Positions 197-23,745 of a stretch of 34,200 bases of DNA are shown here, piece after piece. The translations under genes and the position numbers were made by a program. Origin of the DNA: a virus (taxonomy: Duplodnaviria > Caudoviricetes). The stretch covers positions 1 to 34,200 of the IMG/VR virus record IMGVR_UViG_3300044676_001092; one strand, given 5' to 3'. The notes under the pieces are model-generated. The model was not told the DNA's origin. It was given only the letters and a program-made list of their open reading frames with translations, and searched no databases. Position 1 is the first letter of the stretch; each line of letters opens with the position of its first letter.

Positions 197-586
197 CTAT
201 CCTCTTTGCCAGGGCGCTGCCTGTTGCTGAGGTTGCTGCCACTGTTGCTGTTGTGGAGCTGGCTGTTGCTGCCATTGTTGCTGTGGTGGTTGCTGTTGCT
301 GCTGTGGCTGCATGTCCCGATCATTTGGAAACAAGTTCCAGGATCCGATCTTGGGCCAGTTGCGCGCATCATCTCCGCGCCGGGCTTTGATCTGCACGTT
401 TACTTTCAACTTGTGCTGCACCATCAGCTGGTGGATCTGCTCAATAGCCGCAAGAGCTTCCGGGTTATCCTTCATCTCCATTGGCTCGTTGATCCAGGCG
501 GATGCCGCCATGTCTACGTTCTGACCGTTATCCATATAGCCCTGGATTTGTAACCGGCTGTTTCCTAGTTGTGGTTTATTGCTCAT
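197..586 (-). CDS. Putative ssDNA-binding protein with Gln-rich low-complexity tail
   Basis: ATGA-type overlap with the annealase gene; small domain followed by a QQQW/PQQ tail ending PWQRG; sits where SSB usually lies in nuclease-annealase-SSB modules. Function is inference. Confidence 0.5.
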   Translation of the reverse strand: MSNKPQLGNSRLQIQGYMDNGQNVDMAASAWINEPMEMKDNPEALAAIEQIHQLMVQHKLKVNVQIKARRGDDARNWPKIGSWNLFPNDRDMQPQQQQQPPQQQWQQQPAPQQQQWQQPQQQAAPWQRG

Positions 587-1194
587 AGCATTGCCTTTCT
601 CTTGTTAAATTCACGTTCAAGTATTGCATAGAGATCCGGGCGTTCCTCACTCATGCGGTTCAATCCACTGTCGTAGTAGTCCTCCCATTGCTTTAGATGC
701 TCCAGGACAGTGATAGTCTTTAGCTCTTCAAGCCGCTCGTCAAGATAACTCTGCATACCATCATCTACCGCCAGGTGTTGTGGCATGGGTGATTGACGTT
801 GAGGTGGTGGTGGAGCTGGCTGCTCGTCATTGTGCGGAACATCTTCACCGGCATAGATATACAATCCAAGCCCATGCAGCGCGATTGCTTTCACCCAGCA
901 ACGCATCCGGGCGTCATTAATCTGCCGGGCGTTTGGGTTTTGTATGGCCTTGTTGCTGTGATCCATGACCGGGAGCCACATCATATGTGTCAGCTCTTCA
1001 ATGGTGACGCTGACGCGCACCTCTCTTGTGCCGTCTGGAAACACAACGTCCTCGAGGATCTCAAACGTTGCGCCAGGGTATTTGTCTTTGACCTGTTGCC
1101 AGGCCCATGACCAGGACAGATAACTAAACCGCCCTTTCTTTTCTATTTTGTTGCCGACATCGATGCCGGACAAAGCTTTCCATGCTGTGCTCAT
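583..1194 (-). CDS. sak: Sak-type (DUF1071, Rad52-like) single-strand annealing protein
   Basis: Motifs IEKKGRFSYLSWSWAW, MWLPVMDHSNKAI, INDARMRCWVKAIALHGLGLYIYAGED; start moved to ATG 1194, which overlaps the upstream TGA. Confidence 0.88.
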   Translation of the reverse strand: MSTAWKALSGIDVGNKIEKKGRFSYLSWSWAWQQVKDKYPGATFEILEDVVFPDGTREVRVSVTIEELTHMMWLPVMDHSNKAIQNPNARQINDARMRCWVKAIALHGLGLYIYAGEDVPHNDEQPAPPPPQRQSPMPQHLAVDDGMQSYLDERLEELKTITVLEHLKQWEDYYDSGLNRMSEERPDLYAILEREFNKRKAML

Positions 1195-2180
1195 TTTAAT
1201 ACTCCTGCTAATTTTTTCGCTCGGCGTAACACGTCCGGGTGTAGGTCGCGCCACACGAAGCTGTCTCCAAAGTGAGGATCACAAAGCTTTAATAATTGGT
1301 TTGTGTTTTCTGTGACCATCATTAGTTTTTCCCGGCGAACACACGCCGCGATAACATCTTGTAATGCATATTCTAGCTGCTCAATCGTTGCCTCAAACAC
1401 ACGATAGCCTAACCGGTTTGCATAAACAATGCGGGGGATCTTGCCGGTGATGTGCCAGTACCCGGCTATCTGCATCAGGTGCATCTGTTTAATATCTTTG
1501 GGCAAGCTGTTAGATCTCGGGCTGTCGGTATCGACACCAGTATCCCATTGCGTCTTAAGTTCAACTGCTCCCTCCTGGTAATCGCCAAAGCCCAGGTAAT
1601 CTAGCTCGCAGCCTGGCAGCTGACCGCGCAGCTCAGTCTGGCCCACGATCTGGTTAGCCCCCTGCATTGCTTCTTTCAGTCCGGCGTGTGCGTTCTCGCA
1701 GACCAGCTCAAACTCGGAGCGCCCGATTGTCTCATCCTTCTTCATTGCTTTACCGTCAGCTCCAAAGCGCGGCTTTTGTCTGCCCTCGATCTGAGCTTTT
1801 GTTTTTGCCTGGTCAATCCAGGATCCGGTTTGCAATGCGGTCAATGTGTTCAGCGCCTCTCGGTACGCCTCGTTGGGCATCGCTCCCTCGATGAGTATAA
1901 GGTCGCAATAGTATTCAACAGCCCGGCCTGATGCCATGTTAATGTTGTCCTGGAACTGTGCCTTGCCGCGATAATCTATGTAGTATCCGCCCTGCTCGAG
2001 CACTGCCTCGGCATCCGCCTTGACACCTTCTGCCTCATCCCTCAACACTTTCAATGCCTTGTTTCGCTCCGGTCTGATGACGCCCTTCTGAAAAAAAGTG
2101 TAGAAATCTGGGGTACTTGGCTGGGAATGATGGAAATATCCTTTGCTGTACGCCCACTTTTTAGAATTACTTATCGACAT
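1191..2180 (-). CDS. PD-(D/E)xK exonuclease-like protein
   Basis: LGFGD...VELKT and HLMQIAGY (QxxxY) motifs; adjacent to the annealase. Confidence 0.7.
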   Translation of the reverse strand: MSISNSKKWAYSKGYFHHSQPSTPDFYTFFQKGVIRPERNKALKVLRDEAEGVKADAEAVLEQGGYYIDYRGKAQFQDNINMASGRAVEYYCDLILIEGAMPNEAYREALNTLTALQTGSWIDQAKTKAQIEGRQKPRFGADGKAMKKDETIGRSEFELVCENAHAGLKEAMQGANQIVGQTELRGQLPGCELDYLGFGDYQEGAVELKTQWDTGVDTDSPRSNSLPKDIKQMHLMQIAGYWHITGKIPRIVYANRLGYRVFEATIEQLEYALQDVIAACVRREKLMMVTENTNQLLKLCDPHFGDSFVWRDLHPDVLRRAKKLAGVLK

Positions 2181-2196
2181 GCTTGCATCTTTCGTT

Positions 2197-2211
2197 TGAC
2201 AGATTATGTCA
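2197..2211. promoter_or_regulatory. Operator-like palindrome TGACA-N5-TGTCA, copy 1, overlapping a rightward TTGACA -35 box (2196-2201)
   Basis: TGACAgattaTGTCA in the divergent intergenic region; the same palindrome occurs at 5225 and 5966. Confidence 0.7.
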
Positions 2212-2212
2212 T

Positions 2213-2241
2213 TAAGTAGTAAATGAGAACAAACATTGCAA
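2213..2241 (-). promoter_or_regulatory. Putative leftward sigma70-type promoter of the recombination operon
   Basis: TTGCAA-N17-TACTTA on the minus strand, upstream of the ATG at 2180. Confidence 0.5.
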
Positions 2242-2252
2242 GGAGTTTTTTT

Positions 2253-2456
2253 ATGACACTGGAAGATTGGCGAAACAAGAAGGGCTTGTCCTACTCGCAG
2301 CTGGCTAAAAAGCTGGGGGCATCACATGCTACTGTGGTGCGGCGATGGTGCTTACCGACGGATCACAAAGACCGGATGATCCCGGCGCCGAAGTTTATGA
2401 CGATCATCCATCAGAGCACGATGGGTGAGGTAACAGCTAACGATTTTTACAGGTGA
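2253..2456 (+). CDS. Cro/CI-like HTH transcriptional regulator
   Basis: AGGAG at 2241-2245, ATG 2253; MTLEDWRNKKGLSYSQLAKKLGASHATVVRRW...GEVTANDFY is a typical phage Cro-like pattern. Confidence 0.85.
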   Translation: MTLEDWRNKKGLSYSQLAKKLGASHATVVRRWCLPTDHKDRMIPAPKFMTIIHQSTMGEVTANDFYR

Positions 2457-2459
2457 TCT

Positions 2460-2789
2460 ATGGGCGGGAAAGCGGCAAGAGATAAAGGCGCAGCCTACGA
2501 GCGGGAGATTGTAAACTGGCATCGGGAGCGCGGCGTCGAAGCTGAGCGGATCCCATTGTCCGGGGCAATGAAAGGAAACTATGCGAGTGACATAAAGCTA
2601 GGGCCACAGTTGGCTCTTACAGCTGAGTGCAAACGCAGAGCGAGAGCGTACCAGGATCTTTATGATGCGCTCGACCAGGACGATAGCGACATGCTGTTTG
2701 TTCGCAAAGATCGGGAGCGCACTCTGGTAGTGCTTCCCCTGGAAACATACGAGGCATTTCTACAATGGATAGGTTGGATAAAGGAGTAA
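2460..2789 (+). CDS. Holliday junction resolvase-like nuclease (Hjc-type)
   Basis: KGAAYEREIV, RIPLSGA, D...ECKRR motifs. Confidence 0.8.
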   Translation: MGGKAARDKGAAYEREIVNWHRERGVEAERIPLSGAMKGNYASDIKLGPQLALTAECKRRARAYQDLYDALDQDDSDMLFVRKDRERTLVVLPLETYEAFLQWIGWIKE

Positions 2790-17075: not shown

Positions 17076-19672
17076 AGATACCTTTATATACATCTCAGGC
17101 GCGTCCATCAGGTGAAGCCCCGGGGCGCTCATTCTCAGCGAGAATGCAAGCTGAGCCGTTTATCCGAGCCGAAATTGAAAAAGGGAATACCTTTGGCGCA
17201 GCGGCATCGCAGATCGCTGAGTTTGCAGATATGCGCTACAAAATGGCGCGGGAGGCGAAACTTAATGATGCATTGATTGCAGCTGATGAGCAGCTACGCG
17301 AGGAGACACGGTCTCTTGCTGACTCAAAAGACATCTATAATGTTCTTGATGGCGATGATCCGTACTGGAATAAAAACGTCGAAGGGATCCGAAACACCCT
17401 AAGATCGCAACTCGGCAAAGATCGTGAGTCTTTGCGGATATTTGATGAGCAGTTTAAAAAATCTGAAATCACGCAACGCTTCCGGTTGCGCGGGGTTGTG
17501 GACACAAAGATCGAGCAGCGTATCCAGGCGCAACGCAAGAGAAAGCTTGAAACGGCTGAGGACAACAGTGTCGCGGCTGCAACAATAGACGACATATTTC
17601 TTAATCTGTCAGACATTAAGATTGACGGCGCTCGTACAGCCCAGGTTTTGCGCGCCAATCCTGATGCACTTGATGGTCAACAAGCTGTTCTTCTTAAGAA
17701 TATTGCAAACCGCAGAATGCAAATTCTCCTTGATAACAGCGAGAACCCTATTGCAACGATGTCTATTCTCCGGACGGCAGCTTTGTCCGGCGACACAAGC
17801 GGCCTAACGGATCCTCGGTTGGGCGGCAAAGGTCTTGTTGAGGCTGAGCTTTTATCAATGATGCCGCTCGCTGATCGGATTAGCATACTGAGCGGCGGCG
17901 AAACATTAGCTAAATATGTTGATGGGCCTACGCTAGAAGAAGAGGCTATAAAAGAAAAAGCGGCTGCAAGTTTAGGAGCTGTTTCGAGCGAGGCGACAGA
18001 GGTTTTGTCTTTGCTTGAAAAGAACATCCCTGTTTCAGATGCGCAAATTGATGGTATAGAGGTTGCTTTAAATAAGCTCTCTTCAACATTGCCAGCGGAT
18101 CAAGTTCTGCCGGTGCAAGAGGTTCTTACTGACGCCAGAGACTTTAAGAAATTTAAGGATGAAATCTTGCAAGTCGGCGCGACACCGCGACGGATACAAG
18201 AAGTTATTACCGAAATAGAAAGCAAGCCGGATCTGGGATCGGAGGATGTTAAGTATCTTAACTATGCGAGTAAGTTGTTAAAGTCTACTGTTGATGCAAT
18301 CGAAAAAGATCCTATCGCCTGGGCGCAGAGCACCGGAAACATTGGCGGCCAACCGTTAGATCTATCTTTCTCAGATCCAGCTGAAACTGCGCAACAGTTC
18401 AAGGTGAGAGCGCTAGATGCTAACCGCGTTCATGCGCTAAGCGGGAGAGGCGCTGCTGGCGCAGAGTTCAGATTGTTAAGTGAAGCAGAAGAAAACGCGC
18501 TTGTTGAAAACTTTCAGAATGGGCCGCTTTCTCAAAAAATGTCTGTGCTTATGGGTTTGCAAGCTGCGTTTGATACGGGCACACCGAAATCGCAAGAATT
18601 GCTGCAAGACATGTACGTGACGATTGCAGACAAAGAGCCGCTTATGGCTCACGCTGGCGGGTTGATTGCTATGGGTCGCCAGGATGCAGCGCGCGAGATC
18701 TTGCAAGGGTTGGAGCAATTAAATTCTGGTGTGCAGATCCCTAAGAAAACAGTAAATGGGACTGATGTTGGCGCTGTTATATCGTCAAACTTGCAAGAAG
18801 CTTTGCGGTTTCAGCCGCAAGCAACAGGCGCAATAATCAAGGCAACAGAGGCGATTATTGCCAACCGGTTCTTGGGCGCTACTAAGGATGACCTGACGGA
18901 TGATGATGTCTTGGCAGCAATGCAAACGGCTGCGGGGCAGTATAACAAAAACGATGTTGCTTTTGGCGGATTACAGCTTGTTAATGATGCGATGACATTC
19001 ATGCCGAAAGACGCAAGTGTAGATCGCTTTGAGCAAGTCATGGATAACCTTACTCCAGAGATGATGGCGATTATGGGATATGAAGTAGACCCTAGACTGT
19101 GGGAGCAAGTTGCAGAGGGTAACTGGACATTCCAGGTTGCGGGTGAGGGTCAGTATAGAATTATGCAAGATGAAGGTGGGGTGAGCGCTGTGCCAACATT
19201 CTTGAACGGCTTTAATCTGGAAAGAGGTGGCGAAGCTGAGCCGGTGTTAATTGATTTCTATACAGCTGAAAAAGTGTTGATGGAGGTTCGCCGCAAAAAC
19301 ACAGATTTAGCCTTAACGCAGATACAGGGTGAAGCGTCCGGCTTTGGTCAATTTAGTGAAACCACGGCAAACTTAACGGCGCCAGAAATCGAAGCAGCGA
19401 CAGATGTATCGCCTGTTTTCATGGAGGGATTTGAAGAAACAAAAGGAATTTTCTCTGCTCAGTTGGCGGTTGCTCTCAAAGGCACAAAAAACGCAAAGCA
19501 AAAATCCAAAGCCATTTCTAAGTTAGTTCCTCCAGATAGGTTCAAAACATCAGTACAGCCATTGCTGAAGAGCGTCCCTGATGACGTAAGCAATGAGGAA
19601 TATGTCGAGTATGTTGACGCTGTATTAAATGGCTTTGGTAAATCATTCAAAGATTGGAAAGCATCGCAATGA
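17072..19672 (+). CDS. Internal virion (ejection) protein, 866 aa
   Basis: MKIPLY N-terminus, long helical protein, ATGA coupling at both ends; synteny. Confidence 0.7.
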   Translation: MKIPLYTSQARPSGEAPGRSFSARMQAEPFIRAEIEKGNTFGAAASQIAEFADMRYKMAREAKLNDALIAADEQLREETRSLADSKDIYNVLDGDDPYWNKNVEGIRNTLRSQLGKDRESLRIFDEQFKKSEITQRFRLRGVVDTKIEQRIQAQRKRKLETAEDNSVAAATIDDIFLNLSDIKIDGARTAQVLRANPDALDGQQAVLLKNIANRRMQILLDNSENPIATMSILRTAALSGDTSGLTDPRLGGKGLVEAELLSMMPLADRISILSGGETLAKYVDGPTLEEEAIKEKAAASLGAVSSEATEVLSLLEKNIPVSDAQIDGIEVALNKLSSTLPADQVLPVQEVLTDARDFKKFKDEILQVGATPRRIQEVITEIESKPDLGSEDVKYLNYASKLLKSTVDAIEKDPIAWAQSTGNIGGQPLDLSFSDPAETAQQFKVRALDANRVHALSGRGAAGAEFRLLSEAEENALVENFQNGPLSQKMSVLMGLQAAFDTGTPKSQELLQDMYVTIADKEPLMAHAGGLIAMGRQDAAREILQGLEQLNSGVQIPKKTVNGTDVGAVISSNLQEALRFQPQATGAIIKATEAIIANRFLGATKDDLTDDDVLAAMQTAAGQYNKNDVAFGGLQLVNDAMTFMPKDASVDRFEQVMDNLTPEMMAIMGYEVDPRLWEQVAEGNWTFQVAGEGQYRIMQDEGGVSAVPTFLNGFNLERGGEAEPVLIDFYTAEKVLMEVRRKNTDLALTQIQGEASGFGQFSETTANLTAPEIEAATDVSPVFMEGFEETKGIFSAQLAVALKGTKNAKQKSKAISKLVPPDRFKTSVQPLLKSVPDDVSNEEYVEYVDAVLNGFGKSFKDWKASQ

Positions 19673-22600
19673 GTTTTCTTAGACGACAAGCTGATCCGCT
19701 CGATGTAACGCCATATGAAGGGCGATCAGAAGCGTATTCAACTCCGACAGAAATATACAATTCTGCGGCTAAGTTTATGCAGTATAATCAGCAGTCGTAT
19801 GTTGAGAGAAACCAATACCGTGATGTATTTAAGCCTATCATTGAAGAAATAGCCGAGAAAACCGGGGAGCAATTCTGGAACCCGGCGGGTGCTCTTGGTG
19901 GCTCTGCTCAGGAAGGGACAGGTGTTAGTAATTATGAAGCCCAGGCAAGCGCAATCTTTACGCACATCCAGGAAAACCAGCAGCTCTTCCCGGATCTGGA
20001 AGGGATAAGCCTGGAGACAATTCGTGAGCAGGGTGCAGAGTTAGCGCGCCAGGCACAAGAGGAATACCAGGCAGTCAAGCGCCGGTCGCGTGATTACGGT
20101 TTTCTTTCAGCTGAGGGCCGCGCTGAGTTGGGCGCTGGCCTTATGAACTTTGTCGCTGACCCTGGCGGTCAAACTACGCTTCTTATACCTGGCGCACAGT
20201 TGCCAAAACTTGGCGCTAATTTCACGCAAGCTCTTACTAAGTTCGTTGCGGCAGAGTTTGCCCTGGGCGCTGGTTCTGAGCTGGTTATCCAGGCTGGCGT
20301 TAAGGATTGGTATGACAAGCAGGGCATGGAATATACCTATGAGGATTTCTGGGAGAACGTTCTTCTAGGTGGCGCGTTCAACGTTGGCGGATCTGCCGTC
20401 TTGCAAGGAACGCTACGAGGTGCCGGTCGTGGCGTTAGTATGACAAGCGACCAGGCAAAAGAGATGATTAATATTCTAAAGCGCGCTGGCACAAAGCCGA
20501 CGAAAGATGCTGATGTTGGCTTAAAAGTTTTAGACGACATGGAGGAAACGCTGAATGCTAATCCTCTCGGTGATCCTGTCAATTTAGATGACATCAAGGC
20601 TAGGATGTCAGCAAATATGAAAGAGTTTGATGAGTTAGCTCTTGTTGAACGCAAAGCTGTAGAAGAAGATCTTGATGCATTACAAGATGAGATGGAGCAG
20701 CTTCTTGATGATGGCCTGAGCAAAGAGGAAGTTGTTGCGCAAATTGGGCCGCGTCAAAAAGAATTAAAAGACAAACTCAAAAATATACAAGAACAGCTTG
20801 ATGCACTTGGGATAGAATATGGGCGCCTGGAAAAACTGCGTCAAAGTAAAGTTGCAGATCCAAGCGACATAGGCCCAGCGACAAACGAGCACATACAGCG
20901 CGTAGAAGCAGCGCAGACAGCGCTCGAGCTAGACGAGCCAGTGGTTACACCGGACACGCCTAACAGCCCTCCCCGGCCCCCAGAAACTATCTACGAGGTA
21001 GAAGAGAAATCAGGCATTCCAGAGCTGGACATCGACAACATCCAGGTCGATGCTGATACATTCCAGTTCAAAAGCGGCGGTGATAAGTTTGGTGTTACTG
21101 AAAAGCTGCAAGGCGTGACTGAGTGGAACCCATACTATGCCGGGACTGTTACAGTGTGGGAGCGCGCAGACGGTGTGCAGTTTATTGCTGACGGACACCA
21201 GCGCTTAGGGCTTGCGAAACGTATCAAGGCAATGGATCCCGACCAAGATGTTCGCTTGTACGGACACGTATTTCGTGAGGTAGACGGAGAAACAGCATCT
21301 AAGGTTCGCGTCCGGGCAGCAATGAACAACGTTGCCAACAATACAGCTGATGCCCTAGATATTGCCAAGATCCTCAAAGAAGCGCCCGAAATGGCAAATC
21401 AGCTGCCAAAGTATTCAGCTGCCGGGCGCCAGGGTAAAGACCTGGTAAACCTGGCAATCGAAAATTGGGGGTACGTTTATAACAAAATTATACCGGCAAA
21501 CTATGCTGCTATTGTTGCCAGGCTAATCCCGGAGGCTGACAAGGAGCTGCAAGAAGCCGCCCTTAAGATCCTGGCAAAAAGTGATCCGGCTAACGAGGTG
21601 CAAGCTGAGGCTATAGTTCGCCAGGTGCGCGATCTCGAGGCCGATACAGTTGTCCAGGAGAGCTTGTTCGGTGAAGAGATGTTCAAGGAAAGTTTAATCG
21701 TTGAACGCGCTGAGGTGCTTGATCGAGCGCTTAAACAACTGCGCCTGGACAAACGTTCATTTAAAAACCTGGTAGACCAGCAGAACCGGCTTGAGGCAGA
21801 GGGTAATAAACTTGTCGAAGCCGCAAACAAGAAAAGGGTTGATACAGATGGCAAAGCAATCGAATACATCAACATCCTCGCAAACAGGAAAGGCGAAGTC
21901 TCGGACGCGCTCTCAGACGCAGCAAGGGTCGCAAAAGACACCGGGCGCACTGTTGAAGCTGCAAGAGGATTTGCAGACTATGTCCGAGGACGAATTGAGA
22001 ACGGTGATTTCCGAAGCCTCGAAGATGGCGGCGTTGGAAGGTATGCTGATGATCCGCCGAAAGAACAACGCGTACAGAATAAGCCAGAGCAAGAACTCGC
22101 AGACTTCTCAGACGTAGCAAACGGTAAAGGCTTCCAGGAGCAGCTTGACGCAATCGAGGCGGAAGAGTTGCCGATGAGCGAAAAAGCTGAGCGTGAGATG
22201 ATTGAGAAAGGCGAGATCGCGCCTAACTACACGTATTATCTTGAGCTGACTGATGATGCTATCGAGATCCCTACGCAAAACATTATTCCCATCCGGGCGC
22301 GTAAAGACGGTATTGCCCGGGGACGAGAGCTGATGGCGGATGCTGCTAAAGGCGGTATGTCCAGGCGTGGGCCTCTATCGGTGCGTGATAACGGCGATGG
22401 CACTTATACGCTGCTAGATGGCAACAGTACCTACGCGATTGCATCTGAGGCGGGTATGCCTAAGCTTCCGGCGCGTGTGCTAACGATGGAAGGGTTCGCC
22501 AGGGAAGAGGCGCTGAAAGCGGCAAGCAAGATCCAGAAATCTGATGGAAAGCCAAAGCGCCGGCGCGTCAATGCAAACGACATGGGCCGGGATGAATTTA

Positions 22601-23745
22601 CGGAGTTCTTTAATACTCTGCGCATGAACCAGGGCTATGACGACCTGGACACAATGCTAAAAGACGGTGCTGTGGTTAATGAACTGCTTAACGACAGAAT
22701 GGAAGCTATCGCGTCTGACATGGGGCTAACGTACTATCGAGGCCCGGTTAAGGGTGCGGAGCGCGCTGCTGAGAAAGTACGTGATAAGTATATGGGTAAT
22801 GTCAGCATGTTAGCTGATGTTGCGCGTACCGGGGTGACAGTTAATGACCCGAAGGAGATTGACGAGATCCTAAAAAGACTTGCGCAGCCTGGCGGCTATC
22901 ATGTTGTCTATGAAGATTTCGGCATGACGGATCTAGGCTACTTTGATGCTAAAGCTTCTTTGATTGATGAAAACGGATTTATCAGTGAGATCCAGTTCTA
23001 TCCGCCTGGCATGTATAATGCTAAAATGAAGAAAGCAAAAGGCGGTCTTGGTGGGCATGAAGCTTACAAGATTACACGCGAAAAGTGGCGCCCGATTGCG
23101 CAACGATGGGAAGCTACGCAGTACCAGCTTAAGATTTATGGTGAAGCTATGGCGTCTTTGCCAGAAGCGTTTTCCGATTTGATCGGCAGACTGCCCAGGT
23201 CTGCGCCCATGACCTTTGCGGAAATGGTTGCTTCTGAGAAGTTGATCTCTGGAGATCTAACATCGCCTAGTATTTCGCCAGGCATTATGGGGCGCCAGGA
23301 CTTGCTGCCACGATCCCAACCATATGCTTCTGAGCTATCGTCTGACATCCCTGCCAGTATTAGCCCCTCAACTTTAAACCAACGCATTGGTGACACCTCC
23401 GGTCAAAGTATAGATGTTTCTGAGTCTGAACTCAAGTCTACTATGGCTTTGGACGGCGACCAAGTAGTAATTCCAGGTGCGGAGCAAATATCCCAGCGTG
23501 AGCTTGCTGAGCGCATTATGGAAAGCGCTAAGCGTGGTGGGTATGAACCTATGCCAGAGGGCGGTTTGTTTGATGAGGTTCGCACTAAAGATCTCTTTGA
23601 CGAGTTTGATGATGACATGAAATTTGCCTTTGAGGATGAGCTGCCAAGTGGCGAGCGGGTTTACGAAGAGCGCACAGTGAAAGAGCTGCGCGATGAATTT
23701 GACCAAGATCAATCGATGCTTGATCGACTAAGAGGGTGCGTCTGA
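19669..23745 (+). CDS. Large polyvalent internal virion protein with two ParB/Srx-like domains and a RelA/SpoT-like nucleotidyltransferase domain (1358 aa)
   Basis: ATG 19669 overlaps the upstream TGA; FIADGHQR (DGHQR at 21190-21204); YTLLDGNST (DGNST at 22417-22431); PVKGAERAAEK / LADVAR / GYFD / EIQF / GHEAY (22741-23067); lies between other ejection genes. Confidence 0.8.
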   Translation: MSFLRRQADPLDVTPYEGRSEAYSTPTEIYNSAAKFMQYNQQSYVERNQYRDVFKPIIEEIAEKTGEQFWNPAGALGGSAQEGTGVSNYEAQASAIFTHIQENQQLFPDLEGISLETIREQGAELARQAQEEYQAVKRRSRDYGFLSAEGRAELGAGLMNFVADPGGQTTLLIPGAQLPKLGANFTQALTKFVAAEFALGAGSELVIQAGVKDWYDKQGMEYTYEDFWENVLLGGAFNVGGSAVLQGTLRGAGRGVSMTSDQAKEMINILKRAGTKPTKDADVGLKVLDDMEETLNANPLGDPVNLDDIKARMSANMKEFDELALVERKAVEEDLDALQDEMEQLLDDGLSKEEVVAQIGPRQKELKDKLKNIQEQLDALGIEYGRLEKLRQSKVADPSDIGPATNEHIQRVEAAQTALELDEPVVTPDTPNSPPRPPETIYEVEEKSGIPELDIDNIQVDADTFQFKSGGDKFGVTEKLQGVTEWNPYYAGTVTVWERADGVQFIADGHQRLGLAKRIKAMDPDQDVRLYGHVFREVDGETASKVRVRAAMNNVANNTADALDIAKILKEAPEMANQLPKYSAAGRQGKDLVNLAIENWGYVYNKIIPANYAAIVARLIPEADKELQEAALKILAKSDPANEVQAEAIVRQVRDLEADTVVQESLFGEEMFKESLIVERAEVLDRALKQLRLDKRSFKNLVDQQNRLEAEGNKLVEAANKKRVDTDGKAIEYINILANRKGEVSDALSDAARVAKDTGRTVEAARGFADYVRGRIENGDFRSLEDGGVGRYADDPPKEQRVQNKPEQELADFSDVANGKGFQEQLDAIEAEELPMSEKAEREMIEKGEIAPNYTYYLELTDDAIEIPTQNIIPIRARKDGIARGRELMADAAKGGMSRRGPLSVRDNGDGTYTLLDGNSTYAIASEAGMPKLPARVLTMEGFAREEALKAASKIQKSDGKPKRRRVNANDMGRDEFTEFFNTLRMNQGYDDLDTMLKDGAVVNELLNDRMEAIASDMGLTYYRGPVKGAERAAEKVRDKYMGNVSMLADVARTGVTVNDPKEIDEILKRLAQPGGYHVVYEDFGMTDLGYFDAKASLIDENGFISEIQFYPPGMYNAKMKKAKGGLGGHEAYKITREKWRPIAQRWEATQYQLKIYGEAMASLPEAFSDLIGRLPRSAPMTFAEMVASEKLISGDLTSPSISPGIMGRQDLLPRSQPYASELSSDIPASISPSTLNQRIGDTSGQSIDVSESELKSTMALDGDQVVIPGAEQISQRELAERIMESAKRGGYEPMPEGGLFDEVRTKDLFDEFDDDMKFAFEDELPSGERVYEERTVKELRDEFDQDQSMLDRLRGCV
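23136..23387 (-). CDS. Nested antisense gene (83 aa), candidate immunity/antitoxin
   Basis: ATG at 23387 with GGAGGT 7 nt upstream and a sigma70-type promoter just beyond; MRWFKVEGLILAGMSDDSSEAYGWDRGSKSWRPIMPGEILGDVRSPEINFSEATISAKVMGADLGSLPIK... Confidence 0.72.
   Translation of the reverse strand: MRWFKVEGLILAGMSDDSSEAYGWDRGSKSWRPIMPGEILGDVRSPEINFSEATISAKVMGADLGSLPIKSENASGKDAIASP
23395..23435 (-). promoter_or_regulatory. Internal antisense promoter and RBS
   Basis: -35 TTGAGT (23435-23430), 17 nt, -10 TATACT (23412-23407), 6 nt, GGAGGT (23400-23395). Confidence 0.75.

Follow-up and report, generated by a model that had tools for sequence, protein, structure and literature searches.

A putative immunity gene nested in antisense behind a Tas1-like synthetase domain within a phage ejection-block protein

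Introduction

Pore-forming colicins feature a toxin gene and a protein immunity gene on opposite strands, the immunity gene having its own promoter. To our knowledge, well-supported and fully nested antiparallel protein-coding overlaps have rarely been documented in prokaryotes and their viruses. Tas1 is a (p)ppApp-synthesising effector of Pseudomonas aeruginosa, and the Tas1 (Apk1)-Tis1 complex of strain PA14 is available as PDB 6OX6. According to the available text of PMC12691689, Apk2-IapK pairs of phages as well as exported synthetases are already known. Based on the part of PMC12226406 that deals with sequence signatures, GxN at the syn3 site marks (p)ppApp synthetases whereas SxH marks (p)ppGpp enzymes. 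Furthermore, phage polyvalent proteins with RelA/SpoT and DdrB-like ParB domains have been described and proposed to be delivered together with the DNA (Iyer et al. 2017, PMC5512222, in its accessible portion). A viral overlap in which one frame folds while the other forms a disordered, domain-joining linker is represented by the spacer of the hepatitis B polymerase, as outlined in the available part of PMC8227390.

The locus presented here is assembled from familiar parts, and its gene layout is unusual and well supported. A Tas1-like domain is situated mid-way in a protein that is likely ejected from the virion, and the 83-codon gene nested behind it likely encodes the cognate immunity protein. 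A literature search, covering mostly open-access texts without supplements, turned up no earlier description of an immunity gene nested in antisense.

Results

The window, i.e. the whole stretch of DNA analysed, is a 34.2-kb virus record with a completeness of 98% from a marine phage. It possesses a podovirus-like gene set comprising terminase, head-tail connector, capsid, tail nozzle, and internal virion genes (Pfam, PHROG). A Sak-like annealing protein, a weakly Cas-associated-like protein of 329 aa, a small Cro-like regulator, and a RusA resolvase are encoded at window positions 586-2789. Relatives occur in a Marinicaulis MAG contig and, as a prophage-like locus, in a Rhodospirillales chromosome; these occurrences point to alphaproteobacterial hosts and show that some relatives integrate. 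The carrier gene and its main regions are as follows.

19669..23745, plus strand: multidomain protein of the polyvalent type (1358 aa), encoded among the internal-virion/ejection genes, containing the synthetase domain and reading through the nested gene
21013..21984, plus strand: conserved middle region, aa 449-772 (PHROG hits 10691 and 21), used as a synthetase-independent orthologue probe
22630..23199, plus strand: Tas1/Apk-like RelA-SpoT nucleotide pyrophosphokinase domain, aa ~988-1177 (sequence, profile, model, Foldseek)

The 1358-aa product is a multidomain conflict protein encoded between internal virion and structural genes, with neighbours matching internal virion protein phrog_418 and virion structural protein phrog_684, and its toxin slot is swappable among orthologues. 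Since its gene stands among internal-virion genes, the protein is probably ejected from the virion into the host. We take the middle region at aa 449-772 (21013..21984) to be ddrB/ParB-like; the Pfam ddrB-ParB family was matched in one relative only, L096. Just before the synthetase, a second stretch (window 22276-22501, plus strand), presumably ParB-like, is common to the relatives P0014 and L111, is absent from the relative P0013, and has no library match. The carrier does not belong to the MuF proteins, and neither a PAAR nor a MuF domain was matched in it by Pfam and PHROG. It extends for about 180 aa beyond the synthetase domain, so the toxin domain is not C-terminal.

The first-pass annotation of the window had placed a RelA/SpoT-like domain in front of an antisense reading frame, and this assignment is borne out and sharpened. 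Tas1 is matched by the window domain at a phmmer E of 1.3e-6 and by a profile of 22 relatives at E 9.7e-16 over 169 positions. The model of the domain (pLDDT ~95) likewise retrieves Tas1 as Foldseek rank 1 (E 1.6e-7). The catalytic residues are K1028, K1036, D1050, R1053, Y1091, E1107, H1130, and Y1133; the corresponding lysines of syn1, Asp and Arg of syn2, Tyr of syn3, Glu of syn4, and the His and Tyr further on show no variation among the aligned sequences (22/22) and also align to Tas1 in the profile alignment. Pfam RelA_SpoT misses the window protein and matches stand-alone relatives. Judged by homology, the domain is a Tas1-like alarmone synthetase with intact catalytic residues, and it is predicted to be a bacteria-poisoning enzyme. 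The syn3 site reads DxK in 22/22 sequences, and the GxN signature of Apk, the (p)ppApp synthetase, is absent.

Behind the domain, the following elements are superimposed on the carrier frame.

23136..23387, minus strand: nested antisense gene, 83 aa, candidate immunity protein (ORF, conservation, selection, predicted fold)
23395..23400, minus strand: Shine-Dalgarno (SD) sequence GGAGGT, 7 nt before the ATG (sequence; kept in relatives)
23407..23435, minus strand: sigma-70-like promoter TTGAGT-N17-TATACT (sequence; enriched in relatives)
23248..23508, plus strand: predicted disordered Ser/Pro-rich linker (model residues 217-303 with pLDDT < 50; composition), encoded by the plus strand across the greater part of the nested gene and promoter

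On the minus strand, TTGAGT (23435-23430), a 17-nt spacer, TATACT (23412-23407), 6 nt, GGAGGT (23400-23395), and 7 nt lead to an ATG at 23387, and the 83-codon ORF ends with its stop at 23136, wholly within the open frame 19669-23745. Every element of the order TTGAGT-N17-TATACT-N6-GGAGGT-N7-ATG was found where the first-pass annotation had read it, and its hand count of the plus-strand residues was exact, i.e. 15 Ser, 9 Pro, and 1 Lys in the 84 aa of the sense reading (aa 1157-1240). As for the composition, which had been read as inverted, Ser and Pro sum to 24 in the overlap against a maximum of 15 in any upstream segment of equal length; a composition log-likelihood by frame does not separate the frames (7/27 vs 3/27). 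A terminator had also been suggested (hairpin plus U4, 23104-23081); this candidate was dropped, as it is absent from the terminator scan and its folding does not exceed that of shuffled sequences (z -0.42 in the window, +0.70 in one relative). One metatranscriptome run (0.05 share) yielded four contigs, none spanning the overlap, and has no bearing either way.

An ORF of this kind might be only a shadow of the sense frame, with its signals arising by chance. The register is stop-poor, as the original caveat on chance ORFs had warned, and other SD-led antisense ORFs occur in the long genes of the window. Moreover, the window promoter alone stands at chance level, with 9 such sites in 7 kb against 6.4 +/- 2.7 in shuffles. 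The relatives speak against a shadow. The domain alignment provided 50 loci, some of them duplicates, with a domain identity of mostly only 31-39%; two of the 50 end right after the domain. An SD-led antisense ORF of 66-87 codons lies behind the domain in all 48 loci with DNA there (duplicates included), being fully nested and in the same register in 46/48, which represent 28 distinct proteins including that of the window. With an identical search rule at the domain end and at control anchors upstream in the same genes, an SD of at least 5 matching bases was found in 15/16 lineages against 1/173 anchors. A sigma-70-like match of at least 9/12 is present in 17/27 nested lineages against 7/846 control windows, the spacer being 17 nt in 16 of these 17, and the boxes are kept while the spacer varies. 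A strong match is lacking in the other 10 of the 27. The expectation that homologues would keep the ORF, its ribosome-binding site, and its promoter is therefore sustained for the first two and for the promoter only in part; the promoter claim itself stands by recurrence above chance across relatives and not by the match in a single genome.

A second scan added 57 loci, giving 107 in all, of which 3 are too short to judge. The family profile matches behind the domain in 100/104 examined loci, the profiles having been partly built from these loci. The four misses (L095 and L107-L109) belong to two lineages, with records 25% and 46% complete; in L095:3257-4657 and L107-L109, the synthetase ends proteins of 451-486 aa, and no antisense family gene is seen in the available sequence. 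On sequence evidence, the antisense gene is near-obligately linked to the synthetase.

The small protein itself belongs to no Pfam or PHROG family, gave no tblastn match in annotated phage genomes, and reached a best value of 0.79, i.e. chance level, in the ESM Atlas. A search with the family profile across 401 genomes of the class of G001 retrieved the seed genome only. Its only two close database relatives, P0003 and P0004, stand on contigs of 1111 and 500 bases, which would fit gene callers missing the small gene when the long frame is intact. The family also occurs as stand-alone proteins and at the C-termini of unrelated proteins. Such fusions to unrelated proteins of 150-280 aa are P0042, P0044, P0047, P0048, P0050, P0061, and P0079. 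In P0042, the domain is 94% identical to a nested phage copy, and the N-terminal part matched no viral contig; the cluster of P0044 contains a Roseinatronobacter ekhonensis protein. The fused copies are possibly captured orphan antidotes.

Selection was assessed with 12 disjoint pairs aligned as DNA, which is frame-neutral, and third positions were classed by their degeneracy in each frame, since third positions coincide in this register and plain dN/dS is unable to separate the frames. At overlap sites that are 4-fold in both frames, third-position transversions number 49/139. At sites that are 2-fold in the antisense codon alone, they drop to 10/118 (p 2e-7), and at sites that are 2-fold in the sense codon alone, to 15/112 (p 7e-5), so purifying selection acts on both frames of the overlap. 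In the synthetase domain, used as a control, the counts are 46/173 for sites free in both frames, 34/149 for the antisense-only class (p 0.44), and 15/242 for the sense-only class. Additionally, the antisense frame has the more conservative amino-acid replacements in 10/12 pairs within the overlap and in 0/12 within the synthetase domain. Taken together, the overlap is dual-coding, with the antisense product being the more conservative one. The purifying selection anticipated for the minus frame is thus present, and the minus product, which had been thought to look like a real protein, is under selection at the amino-acid level and has a confident predicted fold. The antisense ORF is almost certainly a real dual-coding gene. 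The reading as a shadow, to which the SD and promoter counts, the clean negative control, and relatives with the core of the small gene outside any long sense ORF are all opposed, is largely refuted and retains a very slight probability.

The same data bear on the idea that the minus-strand transcript mainly serves as an antisense RNA silencing the toxic gene, the peptide being secondary or having an unrelated job. A promoter firing into the toxin gene must give complementary RNA, a terminator is unsupported, and convergent transcription is the classic type I layout. However, the antisense product is selected at the amino-acid level, its SD and start codon are retained among relatives, and the family recurs at the C-termini of unrelated proteins and as stand-alone proteins, so this idea is improbable.

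The preferred reading, a protein inhibitor of the synthetase, also draws on predicted structures. The model of the 83-aa protein reaches pLDDT 92-96 over residues 1-70 and features four strands, a helix, a short strand, and a helix. On the sense side, the first ~37 overlapped residues form helices in the model, opposite the loose tail of the small protein, and the pLDDT then falls below 50. The sense strand had been proposed to be read through as a linker; this agrees with the disorder predicted for most of it but not with the helical start. Owing to these helices and to the constraint on the sense frame, the linker is not purely passive.

Co-folding of the 83-aa protein with the domain, an early suggestion for this locus, scored 0.59 against 0.00 for the best control, a value rated weak, given with no interface, and lying in a zone (up to 0.60) that is more often wrong than right unless the pairing is likely beforehand. 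The mark was reached by 116/157 solved and 2/215 mismatched pairs, with 18 solved pairs and both mismatches at or below 0.60. The runs share at least 72% of contacts, with a partner pLDDT of at least 86; the score may also reflect the solved Tas1-Tis1 complex. No sequence match to Tis1 was found in PDB searches with the small protein and two profiles, and Foldseek with the 83-aa model found nothing. VIA-align places Tis1 at rank 6 of 48,161 (Z 3.2, rmsd 3.2, 56 aligned), tied with unrelated folds. By analogy, the small protein likely works like Tis1/IapK, the likeness consisting of the same size, the same place, and the weak co-fold. Its binding to the domain is weakly predicted by the models, and we infer its immunity role.

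Stand-alone synthetases of 214-216 aa with a same-strand gene of 63-64 aa were seen in two bacterial genomes (L120:1495-2339 and L121:1492-2320), behind a gene resembling, by eye, a nucleotide-sugar dehydrogenase. The pair is a candidate toxin-antitoxin operon. Its small genes align end-to-end but weakly with the small-protein family (P 22%, E 9.5e-4) and have no PDB match.

The history of the nesting can be read from distant relatives, whose group is matched by the nested family in a profile comparison (P 94.9%, E 4.5e-8). In five distant lineages (L052/53, L098, L100, L102, and L103-105), the two genes stand tail-to-tail with an overlap of only 27-91 nt, the synthetase ends its protein, and no long sense ORF covers the core of the small gene; the nesting register is already seen in four of the five, and two of the synthetase-bearing proteins are portal proteins. 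The portal proteins with a C-terminal Tas1-like synthetase are L053:1346-4429, which also has a histidine-phosphatase domain, and L102:2306-4555. In three of the tail-to-tail versions, the small gene is the second of two same-strand genes forming a unit; the first, found at L053:4612-4803 (minus strand) and at matching places in L100 and L102, encodes 63-106 aa, and its product is HTH-like by eye and has no Pfam match in L053. In other distant loci, the small gene is fully nested, including in proteins with LPD23, ART-PolyVal or ddrB-ParB domains, one of them exceeding 2,800 aa; synthetase and small gene are thus found together in carriers from portal proteins up to that size. The small gene had been described as overprinted, and the order is likely the reverse: it is probably the older frame and the sense linker the newcomer, because relatives of the small gene occur as nearly free convergent genes. 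Layout labels cluster in a tree of 36 domains, which is unrooted, does not separate one nesting origin from several, and has L053 labelled "apart" despite its 27-nt overlap with the synthetase gene.

Probing with the ParB-like region alone gave 6 loci, of which 2 were already known and 4 were new. One of the new orthologue loci carries the synthetase with the nested gene, two carry a zeta toxin, and one carries neither. The zeta toxin (Pfam PF06414) of L115:2361-5756 and L116:2541-5870 occupies the synthetase slot, which is thus a swappable effector slot. No SD-led antisense ORF lies behind the zeta-toxin versions, and the locus with neither toxin also lacks the nested gene, so the small gene travels with the synthetase and not with the carrier.

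A partner of the synthetase need not serve self-protection, and the small protein might instead sense a trigger, as the antitoxin or regulator of a module that the phage carries for abortive infection or against competitors. A part played by toxic alarmone synthetases in antiphage defence is described in PMC11782079 and PMC12691689. The prophage-like relative in the Rhodospirillales chromosome and the regulator-like (HTH-like by eye) gene upstream on the same strand in some convergent versions would also suit such a module. However, the carriers of the synthetase are portal and ejection-block proteins, in the manner of delivered effectors; expression of a late structural gene in a lysogen would be unlikely; and no integrase was detected among the window proteins scanned. 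This alternative is unlikely, although less so than a regulatory RNA.

Discussion

The reading as an immunity gene suggests a mechanism in which a host sigma-70 promoter would make the inhibitor independently of the late operon. A highly active synthetase made late in infection would drain the ATP of the phage-producing cell, and the inhibitor could hold the enzyme inactive there during synthesis of the large protein. Injection would be followed by a short period of uninhibited enzyme activity, ending once the small gene is expressed from the incoming genome; the product of this gene could then quench the few injected enzyme copies. In lysogens of temperate relatives, the promoter-driven inhibitor could also block kin phages. 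As for the origin, a convergent toxin/immunity cassette with a C-terminal synthetase may have lost its toxin stop or been inserted mid-gene. The carrier protein would then have run through the immunity gene, turning it into a linker, which the wobble-on-wobble register, having few reverse stops, could permit.

A wider proposal, for which we see the case as evenly balanced, is that tailed phages possess a toxin and reverse-written immunity cassette insertable in the middle of any virion protein. Its gene, ribosome-binding site, and promoter would double as an in-frame linker, gene callers would miss the nested gene, and near-identical copies of the inhibitor domain in fusions with other proteins may be captured antidotes against injected enzymes. 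In such a cassette, toxin domains could be stacked in polyvalent ejection proteins with their antidotes kept.

What the locus adds is a family kept across lineages, a selection signal backed by a negative control, and a series of living intermediates that leads from tail-to-tail neighbours to complete nesting. A possible answer emerges to how polyvalent proteins carry mid-chain toxic domains without a visible immunity gene, and the opposite strand behind further internal toxin domains is predicted to be the place to look for such genes. The small, directly testable candidate pair is also a route to the role of virion-borne alarmone synthetases during infection.

Compared to known systems, the arrangement combines several likenesses with clear differences. 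In pore-forming colicins, the two genes are adjacent, whereas the window gene is nested within a continuing toxin-bearing frame. Unlike the hepatitis B spacer, the window overlap is antiparallel, occurs in a tailed phage, and joins a predicted enzyme to its likely inhibitor. Like the polyvalent proteins in the accessible part of PMC5512222, relatives of the window protein carry LPD23, ART-PolyVal, and ddrB-ParB; in that source, as far as available, no immunity partner is mentioned for the RelA/SpoT domain, and the word "opposite" is absent from its main text. The Apk2-IapK(-Aph1) MuF toxins of temperate phages, as presented in the available texts of PMC10083569 and PMC12226406, share with the window a phage head-associated carrier, a Tas1-like synthetase, and a small adjoining cognate gene. 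In contrast to them, the window protein has no MuF domain, its toxin is not C-terminal, its candidate immunity gene does not follow in the same operon, and Aph1 hydrolase has no match among the window proteins scanned. The DxK of the window domain departs from both signatures given in PMC12226406, GxN for (p)ppApp synthetases and SxH for (p)ppGpp enzymes. The closest solved relative of the domain by both sequence and fold is Tas1 (Apk1) of the Tas1-Tis1 pair, in which a partner gene of about 70 aa likewise stands directly behind the synthetase; the likeness of the window partner to the Tis1 fold is weak. In Tas1, the toxin forms the C-terminal part of a PAAR T6SS carrier, whereas the window domain is internal in a phage protein and reads DxK, not GxN, at syn3. 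As with Tis1 and IapK, a small gene stands directly behind the synthetase, but in the window it is written on the opposite strand, nested, and preceded by a promoter-like site of its own.
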